IMG/VR virus record: IMGVR_UViG_3300025009_000896
Span: 1 to 64,000 of that record
Strand: one strand, 5' to 3'
DNA from: a virus
DNA length: 64,000 nucleotides
Shown: one piece after another, positions 3,528 through 58,181 of the stretch
How positions within the stretch are numbered: the first letter of the stretch is position 1
Layout of the letters: the number at the start of each line of letters is the position of its first letter
Program-made: the position numbers and the translations under genes
The notes under the pieces: generated by a model
What the model saw: only the letters and a program-made list of their open reading frames with translations
Told to the model about the DNA's origin: nothing
Database searches by the model: none

Positions 3528-5938
3528 AGAAGCTAATTACTATACTATTATTTATGTCCCTTGGATTTGCCGTAGCAGCACAGGCGGTGGTTACAATCGA
3601 GGGGAAGGACACCACCATAACCGGAGCCGGGGGCTATGCTATTACACGAACGTCGGCTATACTCCTTAGGTTCTTAAATAACATAGTCCTATACACCTAC
3701 ACAGAAGACCCTATAGTTAACTGTGGAACGAACGACTACACCATAGGGCAATCCACAAACCTAAACGATGCCGTTATTAAGGGCAATAGGGTTACGTGGA
3801 CATCTGCAACTGAGACGGGAAGCACGCATGGTCTGATGGCGGGGTATAACACTGGCTATGATATTGCATACAACTATATTGACTCAACTCAGTATGGAGT
3901 GACACACGAAGGTGGATATCCCAACCACACGTCAATGGACAACTCCACGGGAGGTATCTATTACAACATATTTAAAAACAATAACTTCAGCGTCATTGAA
4001 AAGGGGTATGCAGGTACACGTATTTATAATAACACCTTCTACACCAATAAGAACGAGTTTTCAACGTTTATAGGGATTAAGGAGTCAGATACAGGGGGTA
4101 TAACAGAACCATATCCGGTAACCAGTGGCACTAAAGTCTTTAACAACATCTTCTATAATGATGGCACAACTGCATTTCACGCCATATCAGTGGGCGAAGC
4201 CACAGACGACACCCCAGAGGAGATGGATACGGTTGGGCTTGAAATTGATTACAACATTTATTTTTATGAAAATAGCGCTAATAACGAGCCAACCTTCGAG
4301 TTTAACGGAGACAGTAAGACGTGGACGGAATGGAGGGCGTTAGGCTATGACGAACACTCTGTTATACTTGATCCTCAGTTTGTAGACTTCATAGACCTTG
4401 TTCCTGCATCCAAAGACCTAATTGATATAGGCACTAACTTGGGCACTGAGTTTGATGATGGTCTTTCGACTACAGCAACGTGGGTTGCAGGCGTTACCCC
4501 TACGACTGAAGTTCAGGGTGACTTATGGCAAGTGGGGGCAAGGGTATATGAAACAGACGTAATATACTCAGCAACCTATTATGTGTCAACCACGGGGAGC
4601 GACGATAACCCCGGCACCTACGCACTACCATGGGCTACTTGGGGCGAGGCATTCAACTCTGCCTCGGTACAACCCGGAGATACCGTTTACTTCAGGGGCG
4701 GTGTTTACTCAATGACATCCGATAACCTTGCCTATCCTTATAGTGAAGGATCGGGGTATAACGTAGGTCGTGACGGCACAATAGGGGACACCATAAGGTA
4801 TTGGGCCTACCCGGGCGAAACACCTATATTAGACTGTGACAACATTAGCTTAGCAAGTGGGTCTAATAGGGGCATTAACGGTAACGATATAAACTATGTT
4901 CACTTTAAAGGACTAACGGTTAGGAACGTTAATCAATCTGCGGCAGGGAATAGCACCTATGGGTGGATAATAAACGGGGACAACTTAAAGGTTGAAAACT
5001 GTGAGGTATATAATACCGGAGGTAGGGGGTTTTACTCTACGGGTCATGAGGTATATTACCTAAACTGTGACTCACATCATAACTGCGACTCACTCACAGC
5101 GGCACTCCCGGGTAATGATGGTGTGGGATTTCAGAACACCGACCTTACAAATGCTGATGGCAGTATTTACTATTGGAATTGCAGGGCATGGATGAATGGT
5201 GACCAAGGCTTTTCTGCTGTTTCAATAGGCTACTTAGAGTTTGACGGATGTTGGTCGTTTAATAATGGACTTTATCAGGGTGAGGGACATGGGTTTAAAA
5301 TGGGTGCTGTAGGGCTTGAGGGTGAACAGCCTGAGTTTGGCCCGCTGAAGAGAAAGTATACAAACAACGTTGCCGCATTCAATAGGGCTAATGGATGGAC
5401 AACCAACGACAACACAAGCTATCTGGCCAGAACCATGTATGTCTATAACAACATTGCTTACCACAATGGCTACCCTACGGGATGGGGAGGATTGGCTGCG
5501 GGGTTTGTTATTTACAATACGGCTTCGATTGATGCCGAAGAGTTAGACCGCACCTACCACAATAACATTGCCTACGGCAACGAAGATGGCGACACCTTTA
5601 TTCCCGCCGGGGCTTTATATACCCACTCCAACAACTCATGGGACTTAAGCGTAACCGTTTCTGACGCTGACTTTGTGTCAGTGGACAGTACGGGAATAAC
5701 AGCAGCAAGACAAGCAGATGGGTCACTCCCTGCTAATGATTGTTTTACTGACTTTCTGCAATTAGCTACTGGTAGCGAGCTAATTGACGTTGGGGTTAAC
5801 GTTTCTATACCCTACAACGGCGTAGCCCCCGACCTTGGCCCGTTCGAGACTACTGATGCAGGCACCCCAACAAGCATAACGCCATTAAAATATGGCAATA
5901 AGTTCCTAAAAAGTGGAGAAATATTCTTAAAGAGATGA
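3524..5938 (+). CDS. Two-domain right-handed beta-helix (PL9-like) protein with signal peptide
   Basis: Hydrophobic N-terminus MKKLITILLFMSLGFAVAA; YNNTF/FNNIF repeats; second domain YYVSTTGSDDNPGT..PW, GDTVYFRGGVY, GHGFKMG, APDLGPFE. Confidence 0.75.
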   Translation: MKKLITILLFMSLGFAVAAQAVVTIEGKDTTITGAGGYAITRTSAILLRFLNNIVLYTYTEDPIVNCGTNDYTIGQSTNLNDAVIKGNRVTWTSATETGSTHGLMAGYNTGYDIAYNYIDSTQYGVTHEGGYPNHTSMDNSTGGIYYNIFKNNNFSVIEKGYAGTRIYNNTFYTNKNEFSTFIGIKESDTGGITEPYPVTSGTKVFNNIFYNDGTTAFHAISVGEATDDTPEEMDTVGLEIDYNIYFYENSANNEPTFEFNGDSKTWTEWRALGYDEHSVILDPQFVDFIDLVPASKDLIDIGTNLGTEFDDGLSTTATWVAGVTPTTEVQGDLWQVGARVYETDVIYSATYYVSTTGSDDNPGTYALPWATWGEAFNSASVQPGDTVYFRGGVYSMTSDNLAYPYSEGSGYNVGRDGTIGDTIRYWAYPGETPILDCDNISLASGSNRGINGNDINYVHFKGLTVRNVNQSAAGNSTYGWIINGDNLKVENCEVYNTGGRGFYSTGHEVYYLNCDSHHNCDSLTAALPGNDGVGFQNTDLTNADGSIYYWNCRAWMNGDQGFSAVSIGYLEFDGCWSFNNGLYQGEGHGFKMGAVGLEGEQPEFGPLKRKYTNNVAAFNRANGWTTNDNTSYLARTMYVYNNIAYHNGYPTGWGGLAAGFVIYNTASIDAEELDRTYHNNIAYGNEDGDTFIPAGALYTHSNNSWDLSVTVSDADFVSVDSTGITAARQADGSLPANDCFTDFLQLATGSELIDVGVNVSIPYNGVAPDLGPFETTDAGTPTSITPLKYGNKFLKSGEIFLKR

Positions 5939-6213
5939 GAAAACACTGGATGTTGATAGTATCATTTTTCTGTTTAAGTTTGTTGGTTTGGTCACAAAAG
6001 ATTAACTATGACAGAATAGTCATGTATCCTAACCCATGCCATGACTACCTAAATGTCAAGTCTGACACACTTTTACCCGCTATCCTTGAAATTTATACCT
6101 TTGAGGGAAAGTTAGTAATGATAAAAAAGATAGAAGAGGGACAGATGGAAGTGAGAATTGATGTTACTACCTTAAAGCCGGGATCATATATAATAACATT
6201 TAAAAATAAATAA
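5935..6213 (+). CDS. Stand-alone type IX secretion (Por) type-A C-terminal sorting domain with signal peptide
   Basis: MYPNP...LNV...LEIYTFEGKLV...IDVTTLKPGSYIITF matches the T9SS CTD consensus; hydrophobic N-terminus. Confidence 0.8.
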   Translation: MRKHWMLIVSFFCLSLLVWSQKINYDRIVMYPNPCHDYLNVKSDTLLPAILEIYTFEGKLVMIKKIEEGQMEVRIDVTTLKPGSYIITFKNK

Positions 6214-6599: not shown

Positions 6600-6976
6600 A
6601 GGGTCTCTTTAAATACATGGGGTACTTTCTCTCTGCCTGTGCAGTAGTGACTGTTATATTTACGTGGGGCGTAAACCATGAACGTAAAGTAGTAAAAGAC
6701 ACATCTGTTTCTAATAAGGTAGACAGGCTAATCGAGTCCGACTCTCTCCGTAATGTTCAGATGATATACTTTCAGGCGTCGGTAATGGATAGTATATCAC
6801 ACATATCCCACCAACTAAGGAGACAGAAAGATGAGTTTCAAAAGACAAAGGTATCCTTAGACAACCTGAGAATTTATATGATAAACAATGCTGCCACTAA
6901 AGAGGATATGGTGGAGGTGTTAAACATCTGGGACATAAAAAAAAACTTGAATTTCAACGGGACAGCATTAAGGTAG
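6596..6976 (+). CDS. Membrane-anchored coiled-coil protein of the lysis region; possible -1 frameshift extension to 7035
   Basis: One N-terminal TM helix; A9 run at 6937-6945. Confidence 0.5.
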   Translation: MKGLFKYMGYFLSACAVVTVIFTWGVNHERKVVKDTSVSNKVDRLIESDSLRNVQMIYFQASVMDSISHISHQLRRQKDEFQKTKVSLDNLRIYMINNAATKEDMVEVLNIWDIKKNLNFNGTALR

Positions 6977-50159: not shown

Positions 50160-50846
50160 ATGCAATTAAAGGATATAGATGTTTCAAGACTATCATTCGA
50201 CATATTTGATAGCGACTTCACAACGACTATAAAAGAAAAGATACCTGAGTTCAACGAATACGAAGGAGTGATACCTGAGTTAGACGTATTCAGGTTTGTT
50301 GTTATAATGTGGGATATGAAGTCTCCTATGTTACGTGAGGTTGATGACTATTATGCACGTATGTATGCTACCGCATCAATGGTGGGGTTCCCAAGGACTA
50401 AAAACAACTTCAGCAAGGAGGCAGACGAGATAATCATAGGTAAGAATGAGAGCGTGAACAGGATGATAGTAGCCTATACTGCGTACATGGGCGTACCCGA
50501 GTATCAGTACCTAATGGCTTATCAGGCGCTGTTCGCAAGTGAATACGCTAAAGTTTTGAGGGGCAAGGGCGGCAAGGACAGCGACAAGATATTAGAGAAC
50601 GCAAGCGGGAAGGTCACTAAGTTCACGAGGGCTATCTTCGGGTCGGGAGACTACGATGAGTACTCTTTGAGGAGACAGGCGTTGTATCAGAAGATTGAGA
50701 AAGACAAATTAAGATTAAGACCCGAGCAGATCATCAGGGACTTAACGGATAACGGAGATTTGCCTGAAGACTTTAACCCCTACGGTGACTACTCTATCGA
50801 TATAAATAAGGATATTAAGTTCGTTGGTGATGGCAAAGAAGGTTGA
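50160..50846 (+). CDS. Hypothetical protein; terminase small subunit candidate
   Basis: Helical 228-aa ORF overlapping the TerL start. Confidence 0.45.
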   Translation: MQLKDIDVSRLSFDIFDSDFTTTIKEKIPEFNEYEGVIPELDVFRFVVIMWDMKSPMLREVDDYYARMYATASMVGFPRTKNNFSKEADEIIIGKNESVNRMIVAYTAYMGVPEYQYLMAYQALFASEYAKVLRGKGGKDSDKILENASGKVTKFTRAIFGSGDYDEYSLRRQALYQKIEKDKLRLRPEQIIRDLTDNGDLPEDFNPYGDYSIDINKDIKFVGDGKEG

Positions 50847-53166
50847 TTACACCGAACTTTACGTTCCGGCTGACACTGTTTTTGCAATTAATAACCTCGA
50901 TCCAGATCGAAAGACTATCGTTTTGTCTCTGCCCAAACCACCGAACGTAAACACTATTGATAATTTTGGCCTACACCCTGACGAACAGTATTTCAAACGG
51001 TGGAAGACACCTAAGAAGCTATTAACTATTGAAAAAGAGGTCTTAAGAGAACTTCAGGATATTCAAAAGGGCAACAGACAGGAGACTGTAACGGGGTATA
51101 AAATAATTGACAAGTTCTGGGATAAGGTAGAAGAAGAAAGGGACGACTTAGAGGCAGAGATAGACTTCATTAAGAAGCTGTGGTGGCATAGGATGAACGG
51201 CTATTGGTTCTACAACGACGGCAAACCAACGTACATAACCGGAAGGCACTTCATGTTCCTGAACTTCTTTTATCAACCCGATATAACTACTAACGACGGG
51301 TACCCTGAGTACAGAGACAGACACCGGAGGGAGTTTCTATTCAGAGAGTATCTGAGGCACGCTACCGAGACGTTTGCCAAGAGAGATGAAAGAGGGTGGG
51401 CTGTGCCTAATGCTGATGGTAGTTATGATATGATTGATGTGGGGTCGAGAGTAAGCTATGGAGACATACATCCTAAGTCCCGAAGGAACGGTTCTACAAT
51501 GATGGCATTGTGTGATATGATTGAAAGTTCGGAAAGGAGTTTTGGTATCTACTCTACTATAATTTCAAAAGACGGTGAGGCCACCGAGGAGCACTACAAC
51601 CTTAAGCTACTTCCTTCGTGGGTAATGAGGCCGTATTTTCTTAAACCCGTGTGGCAGGGATCGTCCCAACCAACGCAGATAAAATATTTTCCTCCTAAAA
51701 ACTACTACGGCAACGAAGCCCTGATGAGTGTCATTGACTACACCGTATCGGCCTCGGAGACTAAAAAAGATGGGTCTAAGTTTAATGGAGAACTCGTATG
51801 CGATGAGGAGGGCAAGGTTTCTGGATTAGGAGTCAACGTCTTACAGAGGTGGGACGTAAATAAGAACGCACTTGCCCTTGGTGACGGTACTAAGATATTA
51901 GGATACTCTACTCACATCTCAACGGTAGAAGACATCAATGCTGCGGGTATGGCCTTCTTGGATATGCTTGAACTCTCTGACTTTTATCAAAGGGGAGAGA
52001 GTGGGCAGACTACATCAGGTCTTATGGCTCACCTGTATCCTTCTTATGACGGTCAGGAAAACTTCATAGATCGGTATGGTATGTCAGTCATTGACACCCC
52101 CACAGACCGACAGTGCCGCTTATCTCATTCAGCAATCTTCGCTACGCTTAAAAAGGGAGCCAAGCAATATCAACAGGAAAAGAGAGATGACTTCTTAAAG
52201 AAGGGCACCCCTGCTGCTATGCAGTCTTATAGGGCTTATGTTAAGAAGTACCCGTGGAAGACAAGCGAACTCTATATGTCAACAGTCTCAGACATGGGCT
52301 TTGACTATGAGATACTTGACACCCGAATCATGGAGTTGAGGAAGATGAAGTCCTTGGGTAAGATGCCATATAAGGTCGGGAACTTCTACCGTGAGGGAGA
52401 CCCGTTAGAGGGTAGGGTATATTGGAAGACAGAACCCGAAGGGAAGTTTGAGTTATCCATGGAACTTAAGCCTGAAGAAGCAAATCTTAAACGTAAAACT
52501 TTGGTTTGGGATGGCACTAAGATGTCTATGGTGCCAGCTTGGGAGCCTGTTTATAAAACGAGGTTTACCGCAGGGGCTGATCCATTTCGTTTCAGGAACA
52601 GCAAAGACATCACCACTAATAAGCAATCTGATGGCGGAATAGCAGTATTATGGCACGATTTTTCTAAGCCCAATAAGTCAGAGAATAGGAAGTTTGTATT
52701 GTCATATAGGTATAGACCTCATACATTAGAAGAATACTGTGAGGACTGCATAAAAGTGTGTGAGTATTTTGGGGCTATGTGTTATCCCGAAAACAACCTC
52801 ACAGGAGTATATGAGCACTTCATTAAGAGGATGAGGGGCGGATATCTTAAGTACGATCAAGACTCGATCACGGGTCGAGCAAAGGATACCCCCGGATATT
52901 ACGCATCTCCGGGAACAATAAACGACGGGATGTCCCAAATTAAAGATTACATAGTCTTCAATGGAGCAGAAGAAAATCACTTAAGTTTTTTGGAAGAGGT
53001 GCGTGGCATGAGAAGTGTAGATGATTTAACTAATAACGATAGGTTTGCAGCGCACATGGCCAGCTTACTCGGCGCCCTCAGCAGCTACGGCAAGGCATCG
53101 GATTTTATGAATACTCAAACAATAGACCTCGGGAAAGTCTCTTGGTTACAAAAAAGATCATTTTAA
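50830..53166 (+). CDS. terL: Terminase large subunit (crAss-like type)
   Basis: GYWFYN.G.PTYITG.H, K.RR.GST Walker A, CDEEGK Walker B, GADP and ENN...ND nuclease motifs. Confidence 0.9.
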   Translation: MAKKVDYTELYVPADTVFAINNLDPDRKTIVLSLPKPPNVNTIDNFGLHPDEQYFKRWKTPKKLLTIEKEVLRELQDIQKGNRQETVTGYKIIDKFWDKVEEERDDLEAEIDFIKKLWWHRMNGYWFYNDGKPTYITGRHFMFLNFFYQPDITTNDGYPEYRDRHRREFLFREYLRHATETFAKRDERGWAVPNADGSYDMIDVGSRVSYGDIHPKSRRNGSTMMALCDMIESSERSFGIYSTIISKDGEATEEHYNLKLLPSWVMRPYFLKPVWQGSSQPTQIKYFPPKNYYGNEALMSVIDYTVSASETKKDGSKFNGELVCDEEGKVSGLGVNVLQRWDVNKNALALGDGTKILGYSTHISTVEDINAAGMAFLDMLELSDFYQRGESGQTTSGLMAHLYPSYDGQENFIDRYGMSVIDTPTDRQCRLSHSAIFATLKKGAKQYQQEKRDDFLKKGTPAAMQSYRAYVKKYPWKTSELYMSTVSDMGFDYEILDTRIMELRKMKSLGKMPYKVGNFYREGDPLEGRVYWKTEPEGKFELSMELKPEEANLKRKTLVWDGTKMSMVPAWEPVYKTRFTAGADPFRFRNSKDITTNKQSDGGIAVLWHDFSKPNKSENRKFVLSYRYRPHTLEEYCEDCIKVCEYFGAMCYPENNLTGVYEHFIKRMRGGYLKYDQDSITGRAKDTPGYYASPGTINDGMSQIKDYIVFNGAEENHLSFLEEVRGMRSVDDLTNNDRFAAHMASLLGALSSYGKASDFMNTQTIDLGKVSWLQKRSF

Positions 53167-53177
53167 TTTTTTATTAT

Positions 53178-53185
53178 TATCTTTG
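53178..53185 (+). promoter_or_regulatory. Bacteroidetes -7 promoter box of tRNA operon 1
   Basis: TATCTTTG. Confidence 0.8.
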
Positions 53186-53189
53186 TGAC

Positions 53190-53240
53190 ATGAGAATGAA
53201 TCAACATATAGAGCAGCCGATAAACTTACTTGGTGGGTGA
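53190..53240 (+). CDS. Attenuator leader peptide 1, MRMNQHIEQPINLLGG
   Basis: Near-leaderless ORF; CAA CAT ATA GAG CAG CCG ATA match the downstream Gln/His/Ile-UAU/Glu/Pro tRNAs. Confidence 0.8.
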   Translation: MRMNQHIEQPINLLGG

Positions 53241-53261
53241 GGTAACTCTATATTGTATATA

Positions 53262-53291
53262 GCCCTCCCCACAAGGAGGGTTTTTTGTTTT
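53262..53291 (+). terminator. Attenuator terminator 1
   Basis: GCCCTCC-CCACAA-GGAGGGT followed by Ts; competing strand GTGGGTGAGG at 53233-53242. Confidence 0.85.
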
Positions 53292-53292
53292 A

Positions 53293-53377
53293 CGGAGTGT
53301 AGGTCTGTAGCTGGTAGCAGTCCTGCCTTGGAAGCAGGTGGAGCAATCCCTCGTCGGTTCGATCCCGGCCACTCCGA
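53293..53377 (+). tRNA. tRNA-Pro(TGG) with an unusual long variable arm
   Basis: CGGAGTG/CACTCCG; CCTGC-CTTGGAA-GCAGG; GTCGG-TTCGATC-CCGGC. Confidence 0.85.
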
Positions 53378-53382
53378 CTTAT

Positions 53383-53453
53383 TGAGGCTTCGTTTAACGG
53401 TAGGACGCACGGCTTATACCCATGTAATCAGAGTCCAATTCTCTGAGCCTCAA
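53383..53453 (+). tRNA. tRNA-Ile(TAT)
   Basis: TGAGGCT/AGCCTCA; loop CTTATAC; resembles the Ile(GAT) gene at 53871. Confidence 0.8.
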
Positions 53454-53455
53454 CT

Positions 53456-53529
53456 GTGTCAGATGCTCGTATGGACAGAGTGACGGATTGTGACTCCGTT
53501 AGAAGCCAGTTCAAATCTGGTCTGACACC
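53456..53529 (+). tRNA. tRNA-His(GTG)
   Basis: GTGTCAG/CTGACAC, C73; ACGGA-TTGTGAC-TCCGT. Confidence 0.85.
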
Positions 53530-53533
53530 CTAT

Positions 53534-53604
53534 GTTCGGTTCGTCTATCGGTAGGACGGCGGGTTTTCATCCCGTAAAGGCGAGTTCGATTCTCGCACCG
53601 AATA
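53534..53604 (+). tRNA. tRNA-Glu(TTC)
   Basis: GTTCGGT/ACCGAAT; GCGGG-TTTTCAT-CCCGT. Confidence 0.9.
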
Positions 53605-53609
53605 CATAT

Positions 53610-53680
53610 TGCCCTGTCGTATAGAGGTGGTACACATGGCTTTGAACCATGCGGAGAAGGGTCAGTACCTTCCGGGGCAT
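53610..53680 (+). tRNA. tRNA-Gln(TTG)
   Basis: TGCCCTG/CGGGGCA; CATGG-CTTTGAA-CCATG; atypical T-loop GTCAGTA. Confidence 0.8.
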
Positions 53681-53689
53681 CAAAATAAA

Positions 53690-53720
53690 TTTGCATATTA
53701 AATTAAAAGTATTATCTTTG
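53690..53720 (+). promoter_or_regulatory. Bacteroidetes -33/-7 promoter of tRNA operon 2
   Basis: TTTG...TATCTTTG. Confidence 0.85.
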
Positions 53721-53739
53721 CAGTAATTAAGGCATAAGG

Positions 53740-53814
53740 ATGCAAATGGTAAGAAAAAATATGGTGAATATTGACCGCACAGGCGCAACCGTGCGAAAGG
53801 GTATCCCCATATAG
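53740..53814 (+). CDS. Attenuator leader peptide 2, MQMVRKNMVNIDRTGATVRKGIPI
   Basis: 22 of 24 residues are M/V/R/K/N/I/D/T/G/A, the amino acids of the 11 downstream tRNAs. Confidence 0.8.
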   Translation: MQMVRKNMVNIDRTGATVRKGIPI

Positions 53815-53839
53815 TTCTTTGAAAGGATTATTAAGGCGG

Positions 53840-53870
53840 ATGCCCTCACAAAATGGGGGCATTTTTATTT
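53840..53870 (+). terminator. Attenuator terminator 2
   Basis: ATGCCCTCA-CAAAA-TGGGGGCAT followed by Ts; competing AGGGTATCC at 53798-53806 pairs with GGATGCCCT. Confidence 0.85.
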
Positions 53871-53941
53871 TGGCTTATAGTTTAATGGTAGAACGCCTCG
53901 CTGATACCGAGGTAATTCAAGTCCGATTCTTGGTGAGCCAA
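53871..53941 (+). tRNA. tRNA-Ile(GAT)
   Basis: TGGCTTA/TGAGCCA; CCTCG-CTGATAC-CGAGG. Confidence 0.85.
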
Positions 53942-53947
53942 CAACAT

Positions 53948-54018
53948 TGTGGGGTAGAGTAACGGTAACTCGTGGGGCCCATAACCCCAAGCTGAGGGTT
54001 CAACTCCCCCTCCCGCAA
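53948..54018 (+). tRNA. tRNA-Met(CAT), initiator-like
   Basis: TGGGG-CCCATAA-CCCCA with consecutive G-C pairs in the anticodon stem. Confidence 0.8.
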
Positions 54019-54024
54019 CTAATT

Positions 54025-54098
54025 GGGAATGTAGCTCGTATGGAAGTAGCTACGGCCTGTTAAGCCGAAGGTAGAAGGTTCGAGTCCTTCCGTTCCCG
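54025..54098 (+). tRNA. tRNA-Asn(GTT)
   Basis: GGGAATG/CGTTCCC, G73; CGGC-CTGTTAA-GCCG. Confidence 0.85.
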
Positions 54099-54102
54099 CA
54101 AT

Positions 54103-54174
54103 GCTCTTATGGTGTAATGAACAGCACAGGGGTCTTCTAATCCCTTAGTTTGGGTTTGATTCCTAATAGGAGCA
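54103..54174 (+). tRNA. tRNA-Arg(TCT)
   Basis: GCTCTTA/TAGGAGC; loop CTTCTAA. Confidence 0.8.
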
Positions 54175-54179
54175 CAAAT

Positions 54180-54254
54180 GCCTTCGTCGGCCCCTTGGTG
54201 GGGAACCAGACTGTCACTCTGGTAAAACAGACGGATCGTAACCGTTCGGGGGCG
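54180..54254 (+). tRNA. tRNA-Asp(GTC)
   Basis: GCCTTCG/CGGGGGC, G73; CCAGA-CTGTCAC-TCTGG; atypical T-loop ATCGTAA. Confidence 0.75.
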
Positions 54255-54257
54255 CAA

Positions 54258-54332
54258 GGGCTGTTCGTATAGTGGCTATTACTTCTGTTTTGCAAGCAGG
54301 AAACGAGATTTCGATTATCTCACAGTCCACCA
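54258..54332 (+). tRNA. tRNA-Ala(TGC)
   Basis: G3:U70 identity pair; loop TTTGCAA; encoded CCA. Confidence 0.85.
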
Positions 54333-54334
54333 AT

Positions 54335-54406
54335 GCGGGATAGGTGTTGACACATACACAGGAGTCTTCCAAACTTCAGTAGACGGAGGGTTACCGTCAT
54401 CCCGCT
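54335..54406 (+). tRNA. tRNA-Gly(TCC)
   Basis: GCGGGAT/ATCCCGC, U73; loop CTTCCAA; atypical D-loop and T-loop. Confidence 0.75.
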
Positions 54407-54410
54407 CTAA

Positions 54411-54481
54411 GTGATCGTAGCAAATCGGTTATGCCCCGCCCTTTTAAGGCGGTGAGATTGGTTCGACTCCAATCGGTCACA
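54411..54481 (+). tRNA. tRNA-Lys(TTT)
   Basis: GTGATCG/CGGTCAC; CCGCC-CTTTTAA-GGCGG. Confidence 0.85.
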
Positions 54482-54486
54482 CAAAT

Positions 54487-54559
54487 GCGCTCATAGCATA
54501 ATGGAAAGTGTGCAAGGCTACGAACCTTGGCGGTTGGAGTTCGACTCTTCATGGGCGTA
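54487..54559 (+). tRNA. tRNA-Arg(ACG)
   Basis: GCGCTCA/TGGGCGT; CAAGG-CTACGAA-CCTTG. Confidence 0.9.
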
Positions 54560-54564
54560 CTAAT

Positions 54565-54636
54565 GCTCCATAAGCATTGATGGCGATGCGCTAGTCTTGT
54601 AAACTTGAAAGCAGGGTTCGATTCCTTGATGGAGCT
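54565..54636 (+). tRNA. tRNA-Thr(TGT)
   Basis: GCTCCAT/ATGGAGC; loop CTTGTAA. Confidence 0.85.
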
Positions 54637-54692
54637 CAGGTGGAATTTACAAACTATTTGGAGGTTACAAATCTTTTGTATATCTTTGTGTT

Positions 54693-55112
54693 ATGGAAAA
54701 GAAAAAAGAATGTCCTAAATGTGGAATTAAAAAAACAATAGATTATTTTACTAAGTCTAAATCGCGCAAGGATGGGTTTGGGTCTTTTTGCCTAGAGTGT
54801 GGAAGAAAATACGGGCGGCTTCATTATAAAAATAATAAAGCTGAATATATTAAAAGAATATCCTCTAACAAAGAAAGGGTTCGTGATCTTTATATAACTC
54901 TTAAAAAGTCATATGTATGCAGTAAGTGCGGGGACAATAGATGGTATGTGTTAGATTTTCATCACGAAGGAAATAAGGAATCTGACATAGCCCATATGGC
55001 ATCGGAGGGATATTCAATAGATTCCATTAAAAAAGAGATAGAAAAATGTATAGTGTTATGTTCTAATTGCCACAGAGAATTACATTACAAACAAAATGGG
55101 GGCATAGTTTAA
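54693..55112 (+). CDS. HNH endonuclease inserted in the tRNA array
   Basis: CxxC...CxxC, C.KCG...LDFHH...EIEKC.VLCSNCHRE.H; own TATCTTTG at 54681-54688. Confidence 0.85.
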   Translation: MEKKKECPKCGIKKTIDYFTKSKSRKDGFGSFCLECGRKYGRLHYKNNKAEYIKRISSNKERVRDLYITLKKSYVCSKCGDNRWYVLDFHHEGNKESDIAHMASEGYSIDSIKKEIEKCIVLCSNCHRELHYKQNGGIV

Positions 55113-55167
55113 TTGGCAAAACGTTTGTGTTACATACAAGTCATGACGTTCGAGTCGTCTGCCCCTA
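55098..55167 (+). tRNA. tRNA-Val(TAC)
   Basis: GGGGGCA/TGCCCCT; TTTGT-GTTACAT-ACAAG; 4-bp T-stem. Confidence 0.7.
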
Positions 55168-55175
55168 CTAATATT

Positions 55176-55199
55176 GTTCGATTCCAGTAGAGACTACAA
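55176..55199 (+). pseudogene. tRNA 3'-half remnant
   Basis: GTTCGATTCCAG-TAGAGACTA-CAA with no 5' half. Confidence 0.45.
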
Positions 55200-55204
55200 G
55201 TTTA

Positions 55205-55236
55205 TTTGCATATATTAAAAACAATGATTACCTTTG
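55205..55236 (+). promoter_or_regulatory. Bacteroidetes -33/-7 promoter of tRNA operon 3
   Basis: TTTG...TACCTTTG. Confidence 0.85.
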
Positions 55237-55243
55237 CCTTGAA

Positions 55244-55303
55244 ATGAGAAATTGTTGGTCATATAGTTCGTTTTTACTCTTGCTCTCAAAGCGAGGTAGA
55301 TGA
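55244..55303 (+). CDS. Attenuator leader peptide 3, MRNCWSYSSFLLLLSKRGR
   Basis: TCA TAT AGT TCG TTT TTA CTC TTG CTC TCA match the downstream Ser/Tyr/Leu tRNAs. Confidence 0.8.
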   Translation: MRNCWSYSSFLLLLSKRGR

Positions 55304-55325
55304 CCTATATATCCATATAGCATAG

Positions 55326-55356
55326 ACCTCGCCCATAAAGCGGGGTTTTTTATTTT
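55326..55356 (+). terminator. Attenuator terminator 3
   Basis: ACCTCGC-CCATAAA-GCGGGGT followed by Ts; competing GCGAGGT at 55291-55297. Confidence 0.85.
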
Positions 55357-55432
55357 GCTCCGGTAGCCCAATTGGTAGAATGGCAACGGGTTTAAGCCCC
55401 GTTCAGTGTCGGTTCGAATCCGACTCGGAGTA
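55357..55432 (+). tRNA. tRNA-Leu(TAA), short variable loop
   Basis: GCTCCGG/TCGGAGT; ACGGG-TTTAAGC-CCCGT. Confidence 0.85.
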
Positions 55433-55437
55433 CAAAT

Positions 55438-55513
55438 GCCGCAGTAGCAGAATTGGCACGTGCGTTAGTCTTAGAAACTAATAGTTATGTGAGTTCGAAT
55501 CTCACCTGCGGTA
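55438..55513 (+). tRNA. tRNA-Leu(TAG), short variable loop
   Basis: GCCGCAG/CTGCGGT; TTAGT-CTTAGAA-ACTAA. Confidence 0.85.
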
Positions 55514-55517
55514 CTAA

Positions 55518-55609
55518 GGATGGGTGAACCCCAGTTGGCCTAAGGGGGACGGTCTTGAAAACCGTAGGTCGCTCAAAACGGCGTGGGGGTTCGAGTCCCT
55601 CCCCATCCG
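55518..55609 (+). tRNA. tRNA-Ser(TGA)
   Basis: GGATGGG/CCCATCC, G73; ACGGT-CTTGAAA-ACCGT; long variable arm. Confidence 0.85.
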
Positions 55610-55615
55610 CAATAT

Positions 55616-55684
55616 GGGAGTAATTCTTTGGAGAAGACGGGTCTGTAACACCCCAAATAGAAAGTTCGATGCTTCCTACTCCCA
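55616..55684 (+). tRNA. tRNA-Tyr(GTA), minimal (short D-loop, no long arm)
   Basis: GGGAGTA/TACTCCC; GGGT-CTGTAAC-ACCC. Confidence 0.7.
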
Positions 55685-55689
55685 CTAAT

Positions 55690-55774
55690 GGAGGGCTGCT
55701 GTAATGGTATCAGAGCGGTTCGCTAAACCGTCCGTCAGCAATGGCGTGGCAGGGTTCGACTCCCCCGTCCTCCG
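55690..55774 (+). tRNA. tRNA-Ser(GCT)
   Basis: GGAGGGC/GTCCTCC, G73; loop TCGCTAA; long variable arm. Confidence 0.8.
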
Positions 55775-55823
55775 CACTGATTTCTCACATTCACTATCTT
55801 TGTGGATATAAAAATATCCGCAA

Positions 55824-58181
55824 GTGATTAGACTCGAAAAGTATATCGGCGGGATAAGCCCAAGTAGAGACATAGCCCCCGAGAAAAAGACAGAAGTATA
55901 TTGTAGAAAAAATGCCGAGTTTCTGTATGGTCTTTGGTGCGGATCGGCCACAGCTTGGGGCTATGACTCCCTCTCGTTTTTTAATGAGATGCGGCAGTAT
56001 AGCAATGGGGCTCAGGATACAAATCAATATAAAAGTTTTTTAACCAACTCGGGGGCAAATAACTCTGAGACTTTTAGTCTGTATGATAATGATGCAGGCA
56101 TAACGCAACGAGCAAAACGCGACGGATATTATAACCTGCTATGGCAGAATCTTTCTCCTGCGCCGAAGATTCTCAATGCATTACACGGGGCTTTGGGTTC
56201 TTATGATTACGATCTTTACTGCGATACCATAGATGCCAATTCGAGGGGATTGGTAGAGTTTGAAAAGTTTAAGAAGTTTCACGAGGCTCGTGATATAAAG
56301 TGGCAAACGGAATATAAAACTAAGGCAGGTATCCCCGTCGACGAAGACGCTAACTTTCCTAAGACACTTGAGGAATTAGAAGCCTTCTCCGCAAGGGAAG
56401 GGTTTAAACTGAATATAGCCCGTGCTATGCAGAAGGTGCTAAGGCATGGGTTTAATGTCAGCGATTGGGACGGGTCTATCAGGAAGAAGCTGTTAGACGA
56501 CCTTATTACTTTAGGCTACTGCGCCGCAGAAGACTTGTATGACGACGAAGATAGGCTGTTTAAAACACAATGGCTTGACCCCGCAAGGACTGTGATGCAA
56601 TTTTCCCACGAGAAAGATTATTCGGATGCAGAATATGGTGGGCACTTCTCAGAGTGGACAATCTCTAATGTAAGGCGTAAAAGACCTGATCTTACTGAAG
56701 ATGAGTTGTATGCTTTGGCTAAAAACAATAAGGGCAATTTTAACAACCCAACAATACAGTGGGGGGAGAGAACGAGTATGCTTGACATAACAAGTAACTC
56801 TTACCTTTATGATGACTTCAAGGTAGCAGTGTTTAAGGCTTATTGGATAGATACCGACACTTACAAGAGCCTCTACTATAACAACAACTCCGGTCGGGAG
56901 ATGGTCAAAGAGGTGGGGTATGATGAGAAGATAACCCCCTTAACCAAAAACCAAATAGCTAAAGGCAAAAAGCAAGAGGTAAAACAGACTAAAATCAGGG
57001 TTGTTTATCAGTGTTCATGGGTAGTGGGGTCTGAGATATGTTGGGATCATGGTAAGCTATTGATGGGTGCAAGGCCGCAGCCGTCTAAGCCTAAGATACC
57101 TATCCACGTTGAGCAGTTGCTACAACCTTCTATTGTCTACAGGCTTAAGCCTATCTTAGACTCAATAGCCTTGACGTGGCTACAGCATCAGAACTCTATG
57201 GCTAAGATGATAGAGAAGGGCTATGCCGTGAATATGAGCATGTTGATGAATGTAACGATGAATGGGAAGGATGCATTAGACCCTGCTGGTGTTTTAAATA
57301 TGTGGAAGCAGACGGGGATTCTACCTTATATGTATGGTGGGGCTAATGGGCAATACCCGGGTGGGGCCGCTATTCCCGTCACTCCTATTGACGGAGGATT
57401 AGGGAATAGAATACAGGAGACCGCTATGGCCTTAGAGACTAACTTCAAGCTAATTGAGGAGATAGTGGGGATAAACCCTGTTGCAATGGGGTCTACTCCT
57501 ACTAAAGACTCACAGGTAGGTACTACCGAGATGGCGATGCAGGCCACATCCAACGTGCTTAAACCTATAGTAGAGGGTATGTTCGAGATCAAGCAGAGTC
57601 TTGGTTCAAGTTTAATGTTAAGAACACAGATAGGTCTTAGGGTAGATAAAGACATAAGAGATGCCTATGCAGGTATTATCTCTCCTTCTGATATTAAGTC
57701 GTTGGTTTTGGCAGAACACAATAGTGTTCAGTATGGCATTAGCCTTAAGGCCAAGCCTGATGATAAACGTAAAGCTACGCTGCTTAACTTCATTACTCTT
57801 GAAGTAGAGAAGGGCACATTGGGTTCACCGGAAGGAATGTACTTTGCCGAAAGATTAGAATCGGGTGCAGACATGATAGAACTCCGTCAGGAGATAGCCT
57901 ATGCAATAGAAAAAGGACAGCAGCGTAAGATGCAAGAGTCGTTGGCTACTATCCAAGAGCAGAATAAGGGTATGCTTGAAAACGAACAGCTTAAGGGGCA
58001 GAACGAACAGGCTAAGATCAATGCCGAGGGACAGGTGAAGATGGCTGAAGAAGCCCTAAGAGGGGATATAAAGCATAAGTTACAGAGACAACAGAATAAT
58101 GCAGAATTAATGAGCAGACTCTTTGATGATGTGGCTGCTGAAAAAGAAATAAAGAATGACAACACCAGAAGACAGGCTTAA
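55824..58181 (+). CDS. Portal protein
   Basis: 785 aa, between TerL and scaffold/MCP; R.YS.G.QD..QYK, I.EIVGIN....GSTP, Gln-rich helical C-terminus; promoter at ~55796. Confidence 0.8.
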   Translation: MIRLEKYIGGISPSRDIAPEKKTEVYCRKNAEFLYGLWCGSATAWGYDSLSFFNEMRQYSNGAQDTNQYKSFLTNSGANNSETFSLYDNDAGITQRAKRDGYYNLLWQNLSPAPKILNALHGALGSYDYDLYCDTIDANSRGLVEFEKFKKFHEARDIKWQTEYKTKAGIPVDEDANFPKTLEELEAFSAREGFKLNIARAMQKVLRHGFNVSDWDGSIRKKLLDDLITLGYCAAEDLYDDEDRLFKTQWLDPARTVMQFSHEKDYSDAEYGGHFSEWTISNVRRKRPDLTEDELYALAKNNKGNFNNPTIQWGERTSMLDITSNSYLYDDFKVAVFKAYWIDTDTYKSLYYNNNSGREMVKEVGYDEKITPLTKNQIAKGKKQEVKQTKIRVVYQCSWVVGSEICWDHGKLLMGARPQPSKPKIPIHVEQLLQPSIVYRLKPILDSIALTWLQHQNSMAKMIEKGYAVNMSMLMNVTMNGKDALDPAGVLNMWKQTGILPYMYGGANGQYPGGAAIPVTPIDGGLGNRIQETAMALETNFKLIEEIVGINPVAMGSTPTKDSQVGTTEMAMQATSNVLKPIVEGMFEIKQSLGSSLMLRTQIGLRVDKDIRDAYAGIISPSDIKSLVLAEHNSVQYGISLKAKPDDKRKATLLNFITLEVEKGTLGSPEGMYFAERLESGADMIELRQEIAYAIEKGQQRKMQESLATIQEQNKGMLENEQLKGQNEQAKINAEGQVKMAEEALRGDIKHKLQRQQNNAELMSRLFDDVAAEKEIKNDNTRRQA

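Follow-up and report, generated by a model that had tools for sequence, protein, structure and literature searches.

What purpose is served in a phage genome by placing a short reading frame and a transcription terminator in front of each block of tRNA genes, when the reading frame is rich in the very codons that those tRNAs decode? This question is raised by the tRNA array of an uncultured groundwater phage (IMG/VR record IMGVR_UViG_3300025009_000896, 83,188 nt), of which we analyzed positions 1-64,000 (referred to here as the window). Judged from sequence comparisons and folding models, each tRNA block is probably a separate operon under a multivalent ribosome-mediated (leader-peptide) transcription attenuator, best read as trp/thr-type attenuation applied to tRNA genes, which would supply tRNAs on demand.

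With ARAGORN at default settings 18 tRNAs were detected in the window, and with the thresholds lowered to 85% there were 21 (53293-55775), arranged in three blocks; none was found outside the array in the 83,188-nt virus record. All features described here lie on the plus strand. Unit 1 (53293-53681; ARAGORN and Rfam) encodes Pro(tgg), Ile(tat), His(gtg), Glu(ttc), and Gln(ttg). The first ten genes of unit 2 (53871-54637; ARAGORN, Gly at the lowered threshold only) are Ile(gat), Met(cat), Asn(gtt), Arg(tct), Asp(gtc), Ala(tgc), Gly(tcc), Lys(ttt), Arg(acg), and Thr(tgt), and tRNA-Val(tac) (55097-55168; ARAGORN) is the last gene of the ancestral unit; unit 3 (55357-55775; ARAGORN and Rfam) comprises Leu(taa), Leu(tag), Ser(tga), Tyr(gta), and Ser(gct). 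It should be noted that three of the 21 depend on the lowered threshold: Gln(ttg) (53610-53681) is supported by the Rfam tRNA model at 43.9 bits, Tyr(gta) (55616-55685) scores 26.8 bits, below the gathering score of 29, and Gly(tcc) (54335-54407) is not detected by this model, its orthologues in the phages L016, L100, L101, and L020 scoring 40-49 bits. An earlier note on this DNA had described 21 tRNAs in three units; the number and the three blocks stand, but unit 2 is not continuous, being interrupted by an HNH homing-endonuclease gene (54693-55112; phrog_2255, E 1.2e-32). This gene sits between tRNA-Thr and tRNA-Val, overlaps the latter by 16 nt and has its own promoter-like box; in L016, L100, L101, and L182 the interval between these two tRNAs has no HNH gene.

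The common layout claimed for the three units was recovered in all of them: A Bacteroidota-type promoter is followed by an open reading frame of 16, 24, or 19 codons and then by an intrinsic terminator abutting the first tRNA, with 1, 0, and 0 nt between the end of the U-tract and the tRNA. A -7 box of the form TAnnTTTG (placed at -12 to -5 following PMC9723704) lies upstream of every leader. In promoter 1 this box (TATCTTTG, 53178-53185) is only 4 nt 5' of the leader ATG, so that the transcript is predicted to start at or beside the AUG, that is, to be leaderless. Promoter 2 (53690-53720) has a -33 TTTG at 53690-53693 and the -7 box TATCTTTG at 53713-53720, 19 nt 5' of the ATG, and promoter 3 (55205-55236) has a -33 TTTG at 55205-55208 and the -7 box TACCTTTG at 55229-55236, 7 nt 5' of the ATG. 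Leader 1 (53190-53240) encodes the 16 codons MRMNQHIEQPINLLGG, leader 2 (53740-53814) the 24 codons MQMVRKNMVNIDRTGATVRKGIPI, and leader 3 (55244-55303) the 19 codons MRNCWSYSSFLLLLSKRGR, each followed by a stop codon. The terminators span 53261-53291 (hairpin 53261-53282), 53838-53870 (hairpin 53838-53864), and 55324-55356 (hairpin 55324-55348), each including its U-tract.

The leaders are written largely in the codons of their own block. Among the non-start codons, 7/15, 20/23, and 9/18 are read by tRNAs of the same unit (leaders 1, 2, and 3); this total of 36/56 compares with 19.2±3.5 when the tRNAs are permuted among units, and was reached in 0/100,000 permutations, bearing out the claimed enrichment. 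Conversely, every tRNA has a cognate codon in its own leader (5/5, 11/11, and 5/5; 21/21 in total, p=1e-5). The sensor block QHIEQPI of leader 1 (53202-53222) covers all five unit 1 tRNAs, both of its Ile codons being ATA, and codons 3-22 of leader 2 (53746-53805) are without exception read by unit 2 tRNAs, three of its codons being Val; the sensor block of leader 3 spans 55253-55288. The match is robust to omitting Val from unit 2 (33/56 versus 18.1±3.4). Of 467 other short reading frames in the window, 0, 0, and 1 attain all three measures of the codon-match comparison. A chance codon match is excluded by the permutations.

Such a match might also be expected if the leaders were untranslated and their in-frame triplets acted as RNA, in the manner of the T-box pairing with anticodons, since direct contact between RNA and tRNA would likewise give codon-anticodon complementarity; relics or chance would belong to the same class of explanation. 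We regard this as very improbable. The T-box model of Rfam has no match at E<=1 across 52900-56000, and the signal is specific to one frame: In 21 leaders, the leader frame has 284/427 matching codons (0.67), and the two other frames give fractions of 0.33 and 0.32. The signal is moreover delimited by a stop codon beside the antiterminator strand described below and by a start codon whose spacing from the promoter is fixed; across all 21 leaders the start follows the box by 4-7 nt in leaders 1 and 3 and by 17-19 nt in leader 2, and L101 has a TTG start at the conserved distance.

The design is kept in nine other uncultured phages (L016, L100, L101, L182, L172, L173, L020, L219, and L264), and the comparison of leader content with tRNA content that the earlier note had proposed shows the two to co-vary across the ten phages, with permutation controls. 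In permutations within each phage, the observed match was reached in 0/100,000 for L016, L100, L182, and L172, with p of 2e-4 for L219 and 1e-3 for L101; the phages are not independent samples because their arrays are homologous. Where tRNAs have moved between blocks, the leaders have changed along with them (L219, L020, L264). In L219, tRNA-Arg(acg) lies in unit 1, CGA has been gained inside the leader 1 sensor block, and leader 2 has AGA only; in L219 and L020, unit 2 has Trp tRNAs (plus Tyr or Phe), and W, Y, or F codons have been gained in the leaders 2. L264 has a different three-way partition of its tRNAs, and its leaders follow it (40/61 versus 20.4±4.2, 0/100,000 permutations; coverage 23/23). 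For classes of variable membership, the codon is present in 37/37 cases in which the tRNA is in the unit and in 8/30 in which it is not. Mismatches also occur: There is a Thr codon in leader 2 of L219 with no Thr tRNA detected, CGG in the leader 1 tails of L100 and L172, and an initial F-S-Y in leader 2 of L172; in the window, leader 3 has C, W, and F codons whose tRNAs are found in unit 3 of relatives and are missing from this phage.

Five of the phages share a well-conserved leader 2, as would be expected of a functional micropeptide whose match to the tRNAs is secondary. More distant phages scramble the order of the residues and keep the set of amino acids (the window compared with L173, L172, L219, and L264); in leader 3, likewise, composition rather than order is conserved between the window and L173. 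A scrambled order with a kept composition points to regulatory codons and not to a folded or binding peptide, and we consider the micropeptide explanation extremely improbable.

As had been claimed, a segment near the end of each reading frame is complementary to the terminator 5' arm in all three window leaders, and the same was found in 21/21 leaders across the phages, the best partner of the arm lying at -23 to +12 of the stop codon. The predicted strands are 53231-53239 (the last codons and stop of leader 1; -7 to +1 relative to the stop codon), 53797-53807 (codons K-G-I-P of leader 2; -15 to -5), and 55290-55298 (codons K-R-G of leader 3; -11 to -3). The duplex energy is better than that of shuffles at p<=0.05 in 11/21 leaders, including leader 2 (-15.9 kcal/mol, p=0.013) and leader 3 (-12.5 kcal/mol, p=0.007) of the window; that of its leader 1 is not beyond shuffles (p=0.21). 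In the leader 2 alignment the antiterminator is 88.4% paired, versus 41-57% when slid, with both sides altered in 5/9 pairs and a covariation score reached by only 1/500 shuffles; the leader 3 alignment has little covariation (one pair changed on both sides, score reached by 427/500 shuffles).

We then modeled the switch with a partition function conditioned on the ribosome position, an equilibrium and not a kinetic calculation, with shuffled controls. With the ribosome stalled in the sensor block, P(terminator) is ~0, and with the ribosome at the stop codon it is 0.73-0.98, in 16/21 leaders; no modeled switch was obtained for leader 1 of L016, leaders 1 and 3 of L182, and leader 3 of L172 and of L173. 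Two of three L264 leaders also switch (leader A does not), so that in 18/24 leaders the terminator is lost on stalling and restored at the stop, the outcome of the folding check suggested earlier. For window leader 1 the values are 0.00 with a stalled ribosome and 0.95 at the stop; the observed switch was reached by 1, 1, and 0 of 50 shuffles for leaders 1, 2, and 3. When no ribosome is present, window leader 2 takes up the antiterminator fold (P(terminator) 0.03), in contrast to its orthologues, which give 0.97 in L016, L182, and L101 and 0.07 in L100. Permutations, co-variation, compensatory changes, and folding support the translated codon-matched leader and the mutually exclusive antiterminator and terminator of trp/his logic that had been proposed.

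The six of 24 leaders without a modeled switch would be accommodated if the reading frames were translated in some other role, such as shielding the nascent transcript against Rho or nucleases or timing its processing by RNase P, and terminators directly 5' of tRNAs could merely insulate the blocks from upstream genes. This seems decidedly unlikely, as it leaves unexplained why leader codons track relocated tRNAs, why the last codons invariably contain the sequence complementary to that arm of the terminator (21/21), and why compensatory changes occur.

In the attenuator reading, RNA polymerase would initiate at the Bacteroidota sigma-A promoter, and a ribosome would load the leader at once, leaders 1 and 3 being apparently leaderless and leader 2 having a 17-19 nt A-rich 5' UTR. 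The codon run in the middle of the leader would sample every tRNA encoded downstream. If all sampled codons were decoded fast, the ribosome would reach the last codons and stop, masking the strand complementary to the terminator 5' arm; the terminator would therefore form, and transcription would end in the U-tract just 5' of the first tRNA. Were charged tRNA scarce for any sampled codon, slow decoding would stall the ribosome upstream, the freed strand would pair with the terminator 5' arm as antiterminator, and the whole block would be transcribed, the leader presumably being removed by RNase P. The ribosome would then gauge the supply of the very tRNAs whose genes it gates, a negative feedback. 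As a leader in the block's own codons is combined with a switchable stop, each block is probably made only when those codons are read slowly. The sequences themselves show the anatomy, the correspondence of codons to tRNAs with its co-variation among phages, and the alternative pairings with their compensatory changes. No RNA run was found to contain this DNA, and leader translation, read-through, the in vivo direction of the switch, and its physiological trigger we infer.

The same hardware might constitute a dedicated counter-defence sensor, in which cleavage by an anticodon nuclease (PrrC, PARIS AriB, retron-linked, or VapC-like) releases putatively nuclease-resistant phage tRNAs. A cleavage sensor would need leaders that sample every supplied tRNA, with any one stall opening the block, as these do, and there are reports of phage tRNAs that rescue infection in the face of PARIS and that evade anticodon nucleases (PMC11464382, PMC10264068). 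Nothing in the sequence favors defence over general supply and demand, however, and amino-acid starvation would set off such a sensor just as well. No RtcB or Rnl2-type RNA ligase was found in the 83-kb virus record; the PF09511 search, which had no match in any control genome, carries no weight. We consider this specialization unlikely. The signal fits tRNA loss and amino-acid starvation alike and cannot distinguish them; starvation for amino acids, host shut-off, and heavy late translation would all trigger a supply-and-demand attenuator equally.

Full-text literature searches found no published account of leader-peptide attenuation gating tRNA genes, in agreement with the earlier note. The closest relatives in design are the enterobacterial attenuators, both multivalent (thr, ilvGMEDA, ilvBN) and responsive to a single amino acid (trp, his, leu, pheA). 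With the predicted phage attenuators these share a short reading frame near the promoter in which regulatory codons abound, an intrinsic terminator, pairing of the antiterminator with the terminator 5' arm, masking of the antiterminator strand by a ribosome at the stop, and, in some, the sensing of several amino acids per leader; the Rfam Trp_leader model (RF00513) aligns to leader 3 (55250-55353) at 27.7 bits, below its gathering score of 41. They control biosynthetic enzymes and have codon runs for between one and three amino acids, whereas the phage attenuators would control tRNA genes, with 5 to 11 codon classes used one to four times each and a product that feeds directly back on the sensor; two of the three phage leaders are also apparently leaderless, and the system is carried by a phage with a host in the Bacteroidota. 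The pheST attenuator (pheM leader) of Escherichia coli likewise applies leader-peptide attenuation to a translation component setting the supply of charged tRNA, but it controls a protein, phenylalanyl-tRNA synthetase, and senses one amino acid, where the phage system would control the tRNA genes themselves. T-box riboswitches also sense the status of specific tRNAs and choose between terminator and antiterminator; they bind uncharged tRNA directly, without ribosome or reading frame, whereas the phage signal is an in-frame reading frame.

Two further systems are comparable as described in the sources cited. The trn operon of Anabaena sp. PCC 7120 is a cryptic long tRNA array induced under translational stress (PMC8421152, PMC10272220), an accessory array whose default state is off and which impaired translation switches on, as is proposed for the phage blocks; its control as described is exerted on the promoter, where the repressor TrcR binds direct repeats, with no codon-matched reading frame, and the main text of PMC8421152 has 0 instances of the stems "attenuat" and "leader", as has that of PMC10272220 of "attenuat" and "leader peptide". 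In mycobacteria, leaderless polycysteine short reading frames are described as cysteine-responsive attenuators (bioRxiv 10.1101/834739); like the phage leaders they lie at the operon 5' end, and their translation speed sets downstream expression, as is proposed for the phage, but they sense one amino acid, act on protein-coding operons, and belong to another phylum.

The tRNA genes form an array on the + strand between the large terminase gene (TerL; 50824-53166, phrog_6681) and the portal gene (55824-58181, phrog_6547), and no tRNA was found elsewhere in the 83,188-nt virus record that holds the window, which was assembled from groundwater metagenomes. With its default settings ARAGORN finds 18 tRNAs, and the 21 counted in the earlier note are reached at 85% of its thresholds, where Gln(ttg), Gly(tcc) and Tyr(gta) fill three tRNA-sized gaps. 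The Rfam tRNA model supports Gln at 43.9 bits and gives Tyr 26.8 bits, under the gathering score; it misses the window's Gly(tcc), whose orthologous genes in four related arrays score 40-49 bits. This Gly(tcc) gene, missed by default ARAGORN as well, has an odd D arm. The tRNA-Pro (53293-53378) is 86 nt long and has an extra arm; both tRNA-Leu (55357-55514) measure 77 nt and tRNA-Tyr (55616-55685) 70 nt, shorter than the long-arm class II form expected of bacterial tRNA-Leu and tRNA-Tyr.

Intergenic spacing in the array is 1-5 nt, except for the region 5' of the first gene, two gaps of 188-189 nt, and a 459-nt gap filled by an HNH endonuclease gene (54693-55112; phrog_2255, E 1.2e-32), which has its own TAnnTTTG box just 5' of its ATG and overlaps tRNA-Val with the final 16 nt of its 3' end. 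Because the Thr and Val tRNAs are adjacent in four homologous arrays (L016, L100, L101 and L182, loci of other uncultured phages), tRNA-Val is a member of unit 2, into which the HNH gene has inserted; the division into three units thus stands, with Val split off from the second. HNH homing-endonuclease genes also lie inside the tRNA blocks of three further phages, at sites differing by phage (L020, 3165-3560 and 4270-4685; L172, about 1907-2436 and 3178-3803; L264, about 3978-4465), and in L020 one of them seems, by eye, to interrupt tRNA-Trp, leaving a partial 5' copy. The window's blocks are divided roughly by first codon letter: unit 1 holds the C-row (Pro, His, Gln, and in L219 also Arg CGN) with Glu and Ile-AUA, unit 2 the A- and G-rows, and unit 3 the U-row (Phe, Leu, Ser, Tyr, Cys, Trp in relatives) with the sister boxes CUN and AGY. 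This division is broken in L264.

Each of the three regions without the HNH gene contains the same parts, namely a promoter box, a short ORF, a hairpin with U-tract and the first tRNA of the block. The leader ORFs 1, 2 and 3 (MRMNQHIEQPINLLGG, MQMVRKNMVNIDRTGATVRKGIPI and MRNCWSYSSFLLLLSKRGR) start at 53190, 53740 and 55244, and a Bacteroidota sigma-A -7 box, TAnnTTTG, lies 4, 19 and 7 nt 5' of them, with a -33 TTTG for leaders 2 and 3 (consensus as given in passages of PMC7366714 and PMC9723704). Each ORF is succeeded by a G+C-rich hairpin and a U-tract, and the first tRNA begins 1, 0 and 0 nt after the U-tract. The layout described in the earlier note, with promoter, short ORF, terminator and a tRNA 0-2 nt further on, is therefore as claimed, and includes the short ORF behind a promoter and the terminator expected of an attenuator. 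The -7 box is placed at -12 to -5 in the relevant passage of PMC9723704, so that the 4-nt spacing of leader 1 would put its predicted transcription start on the A of the ATG. The distance from box to start codon is 4-7 nt in leaders 1 and 3 and 17-19 nt in leaders 2 (21/21 leaders, ten phages), and in L101 the start codon at the conserved distance is TTG. This constancy fits a translated leader, since a chance ORF would not keep such a spacing. The heptamer CATATAG occurs in all three leaders (53205-53211, 53808-53814, 55259-55265), inside the sensor codons of leaders 1 and 3, where it forms the 5' arm of a large hairpin, and over the final two codons and stop of leader 2; it occurs again past the stop of leader 3 (55313-55319). 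The leaders may be paralogous; alternatively, CATATAG may have its own function, for example as a site of pausing or processing.

The leaders are enriched in codons read by the tRNAs of their own unit, as the earlier note had claimed, and the correspondence lies far beyond chance. Sense codons were sorted into 24 classes according to the anticodon that decodes them, from the minimal set used by the arrays, and by this count the unit's own tRNAs read 7/15, 20/23 and 9/18 of the non-start codons of leaders 1, 2 and 3, with runs of 7, 20 and 5 matching codons; each of the 21 window tRNAs has a cognate codon in its own leader. Codons drawn at random from the window's 31 long ORFs reach this coverage at p=0.0066, 0.0026 and 0.022 and these runs at p=7e-5, 1.5e-5 and 0.003. 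The least assumption-laden control keeps leaders and unit sizes fixed and permutes the tRNA class membership of the units: the 36 matches among 56 codons compare with a null of 19.2±3.5 and were reached in 0 of 100,000 permutations, full coverage in 1 of 100,000, and counting Val outside unit 2 changed little (33 matches vs 18.1±3.4). The codon enrichment of an attenuator is thus present. Over the 21 leaders of the window and its homologous arrays the match rate is 0.67 in frame, against 0.33 and 0.32 one or two bases out of frame. The window has 467 other ATG ORFs with 15-29 codons, of which 0, 0 and 1 equal leaders 1, 2 and 3 jointly on fraction, coverage and run. The split of Ile codons is a trend only over whole leaders (ATA to ATY, 13 to 10 in leaders 1 and 6 to 14 in leaders 2); it is exact only at the conserved core, with ATA in 6/6 'H-I-E' motifs and ATT in 8/8 leader-2 cores.

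The earlier note had proposed comparing leader content with tRNA content in related arrays. GenBank phages gave only single-tRNA matches to 53100-55850 (blastn, each ≤5% of the query); the portal protein as bait in IMG/VR returned five stretches that fitted a pattern, with no relative among them; a tRNA-Gly pattern found 0 stretches in genome contigs, and an exact 25-mer of tRNA-Asp matched only the contig of L016. Loci were gathered through TerL similarity and tRNA-derived patterns, queries of which the leaders formed no part. TerL as bait yielded arrays of the window type in 3 of 80 IMG/VR loci (L016, L020 and L015, a fragment of an array near-identical to L016) and in 2 of 80 metagenomic loci (L100, L101). 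As most TerL relatives have no array within 10 kb, in a survey of relatives other than the closest (82%, 79% and 75% identity), the array appears sporadic in this phage group. Several TerL homologues (P0003, P0008, P0028, P0029, P0031 and P0109) are about 1,160-1,190 aa long and carry the intein/homing-endonuclease domains PF05204, PF05203 and PF14528, which indicates that inteins invade the TerL family; the window's TerL has none. In all, homologous arrays were found in L016, L100, L101, L182, L172 (whose type includes L168 and L177), L173, L020 and L219, and a differently arranged one in L264. Where known, the terminases of these phages are just 37-42% identical to that of the window, and the position of the array relative to the terminase gene varies. 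A look-up of sequencing runs listed no RNA run that contains the window's DNA. Relatives of the tRNAs and leaders are also present in freshwater and wastewater assemblies (contigs of four runs, in small shares; the two 'RNA-Seq' runs are flagged as probably DNA), and such contigs carry no information on transcript ends or levels.

A promoter-ORF-terminator unit precedes each block in all these arrays. In 18 of 21 leader-block pairs, or 19 with the TTG start of L101, the leader covers every tRNA of its block; the earlier note had held that homologous arrays lacking the ORF or the codon match would speak against it, and the design is kept in the relatives, with an incomplete match in two of the 21. 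Unit 3 of the relatives adds Trp, Phe and Cys tRNAs, and their leaders 3 carry W, F and C codons; the window has lost these tRNA genes at the end of its array and retained the codons in leader 3. Leader content also follows tRNAs that have moved. L219 has tRNA-Arg(acg) in unit 1, and its leader 1 contains IIRHIEQPQEPI, in which R is CGA, while its leader 2 has AGA only, having lost the CGN codon present in the seven other leaders 2; its unit 2 includes Trp and Tyr tRNAs, and W and Y each occur twice in leader 2. In L020 the Phe and Trp tRNAs are in unit 2, and F and W codons in leader 2. L264 splits 23 tRNA classes into three blocks unlike those of the window (Ala, Lys, Arg(tct), Trp, Ile, Met, Gly, Val, Asn, Asp; Leu, Leu, Ser, Ser, Tyr; Glu, Pro, Cys, Phe, Thr, Arg(acg), Gln, His), and its leaders track this division, with 40 matches among 61 codons vs 20.4±4.2 (0/100,000 permutations) and coverage of 23/23. 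Among classes that belong to the unit in some members of a leader family and not in others, the codon occurs in 37/37 in-unit and 8/30 out-of-unit cases, and C, W and F of the window make up three of the eight; a Fisher test on these counts (p=2e-11) overstates the evidence because the phages are related, and the independent co-variation events are the relocations in L219, L020 and L264. As leaders co-vary when tRNAs change block, the design is under selection in at least four distinguishable arrangements (window type, L219, L020, L264). In distant leaders the residue order is scrambled and the amino-acid set kept (e.g., window leader 3 vs L173, MKKINTFLYSYSWSLCFFRNLDRTSIPI), which favors regulatory codons over a functional peptide. 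The Leu/Ser/Tyr block of L264 (leader 6090-6140) ends in an amber-suppressor-like tRNA with a CTA anticodon (6687-6759, 'Pyl' according to ARAGORN), and its leader is the only one of the three in L264 with a TAG stop; the suppressor tRNA could shift the point at which ribosomes stop on its own leader.

The free leader RNAs are more stable than dinucleotide shuffles (z -2.3 to -5.7) and fold into a large hairpin, in which the sensor codons (the mid-leader run sampling the tRNAs encoded downstream) pair with a segment past the stop, followed by the terminator. In 21/21 leaders the terminator 5' arm finds its best partner in the last ORF codons, at -23 to +12 of the stop. The complementarity claimed in the earlier note is accordingly right as to position, but the antiterminator duplex beats shuffles (p≤0.05) in only 11 of 21 leaders, window leader 1 not being among them (p=0.21). 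Terminator sequences vary by family and phage, and the partner strand varies in step. In the alignment of leaders 2 the antiterminator helix is 88.4% paired, vs 41-57% when slid, with five of nine pairs changed on both sides and a covariation score attained by 1 of 500 shuffles. Leaders 3 are 83.7% paired, vs 36-50% when slid, with one doubly changed pair; their covariation shows no excess over shuffles in alignment A2, in which L172 and L173 are misaligned. The helix of L173 (GACAGG with CCTGTC) is out of register in this alignment, and only the duplex search recovered it.

We modeled the ribosome as a 27-nt footprint forced unpaired at each A-site position and computed the terminator pair probability at equilibrium. 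Placing the A site within the sensor block brings the terminator probability to about 0, and moving the ribosome on to the tail or the stop raises it again to 0.73-0.98; the predicted antiterminator is present in the MFE structures. Such a modeled switch is present in 16 of 21 leaders and in two of the three of L264, and absent at equilibrium from leaders 1 of L016 and L182, leaders 3 of L182, L172 and L173, and leader A of L264. When all sequence 5' of the terminator was shuffled, 1, 1 and 0 of 50 trials gave back the switch of window leaders 1, 2 and 3. Even without a ribosome, the RNA of window leader 2 favors the antiterminator. A mutually exclusive antiterminator is thus predicted in silico, weak for leader 3 and for the duplex energy of window leader 1. 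The ribosome-position model supports the trp/his-type logic assigned to the leaders in the earlier note, though not uniformly, given six leaders with no switch and the fold of the free RNA of window leader 2.

Taking these models together with the sequence anatomy, we consider it likely, on in silico support, that the tRNA blocks are gated by ribosome-mediated leader-peptide attenuation. The simplest account would be attenuation of the trp/thr type, with the sensor codons as segment 1, the last ORF codons as segment 2, and the 5' and 3' arms of the terminator as segments 3 and 4. Fast decoding would bring the ribosome over segment 2, so that 3:4 pairing stops transcription before the tRNAs; a stall on any sensor codon would allow segments 2 and 3 to pair, and transcription would run on into the block. 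As each block's own tRNAs read the codons that its leader samples, the loop would be self-limiting. From the anatomy and its conservation, both seen directly, we infer that the leaders are translated, that translation and transcription are coupled, and that the switch acts in this direction in vivo. Clues for leader-peptide attenuation in Bacteroidota, in the passages concerned of PMC9723704 and PMC7366714, make the host machinery plausibly competent. Candidate triggers are the translation load of late genes, decay of host tRNAs, starvation and anticodon nucleases. As for tRNA repair genes, the 83,188-nt record has no match to RtcB or to the Rnl2-type RNA_ligase (PF09414), and these searches gave nothing pointing to a tRNA-damage context; the PF09511 profile, with no match in any control genome, is silent on the record.

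Beyond these arrays, 57 short ORFs located 5' of tRNA units in other loci were compared with their tRNAs, and one jumbo-phage family alone stood out. A tRNA-Pro scan of 121 units found a short ORF in 83 and about four with p≤1e-3, and these few matches among unrelated arrays indicate that the design is not universal in phage tRNA arrays. In the jumbo-phage family, which is unrelated to the window (L166, L174 and L178, on contigs of 59-349 kb), a TAnnTTTG box precedes a candidate leader of 41 codons (L174, 7239-7364; L166, 2487-2612; L178, 1991-2116). Of 40 codons in this leader, 30 have a matching tRNA in the blocks that come next (Thr, Thr, Cys, Asn, an HNH-like gene, Ile, Ser, Ser, Phe, Gly, Met; binomial p=1.7e-6), and a terminator follows, its 5' arm complementary to the ORF tail. 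Three other loci have short ORFs matching the tRNAs of their block: in L270 (602-700) 18 of 31 codons match with coverage of 8/8, in L220 (reverse strand, 4015-4161) the first 24 codons are almost all in-unit and the ORF reaches the tRNA without an obvious terminator, and L252 holds another. They may be variants of the design beyond promoters of the Bacteroidota type.

A wider proposal, which we regard as tentative and rather doubtful, is that Bacteroidota phages, including unrelated jumbo phages, run a tRNA homeostat, in which the ribosome would assay each tRNA pool codon by codon and open the operon that refills it. One depleted species would trip the switch, which would thereby serve as an alarm for host anticodon nucleases or tRNA shut-off and supply replacements within one transcription round, and the blocks would group tRNAs that are lost together. 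The attenuation reading itself, if right, would explain how phage tRNA arrays are regulated and why they are split into blocks, and it would be a direct feedback in which a ribosome at work on the leader, as the sensor, gauges the charged tRNA that the loop yields. Whether phage tRNAs serve codon supply or escape from defenses that target tRNAs, a matter of debate, could then be tested by noting the condition under which the switch opens, and the leaders would be compact natural sensors of decoding speed for up to eleven codon classes.

Among known RNA regulators, T-box riboswitch membership was rejected, as the T-box model has no match at E≤1 in 52900-56000. The Rfam Trp_leader model (RF00513) reaches 27.7 bits (E 0.0087) at 55250-55353, below its gathering score of 41, a likeness of architecture and not of membership, and the window leaders are members of no Rfam leader family. 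Compared with the multivalent attenuators of enterobacteria, the window leaders show in silico the four structural features of that class, the controlled genes here being tRNAs. All leader-peptide attenuators known to us control amino-acid biosynthesis enzymes or synthetases; such a target is no mechanistic requirement, and tRNA genes as the target are the point of novelty. The earlier note knew of no description of attenuated tRNA genes, and this agrees with the full-text literature open without subscription, supplements aside, in which we found no report of tRNA genes gated by ribosome-mediated attenuation. Transfer RNA genes are generally regarded as under growth-rate or promoter control. 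The nearest published conditional accessory tRNA array is the trn operon of Anabaena; in the main texts of PMC8421152 and PMC10272220 'attenuat' occurs 0 times, as do 'leader' in the former and 'leader peptide' in the latter. As described there, the Anabaena operon is controlled at its promoter through repeats bound by TrcR (PMC8421152, PMC10272220), whereas the control proposed for the present arrays is attenuation.
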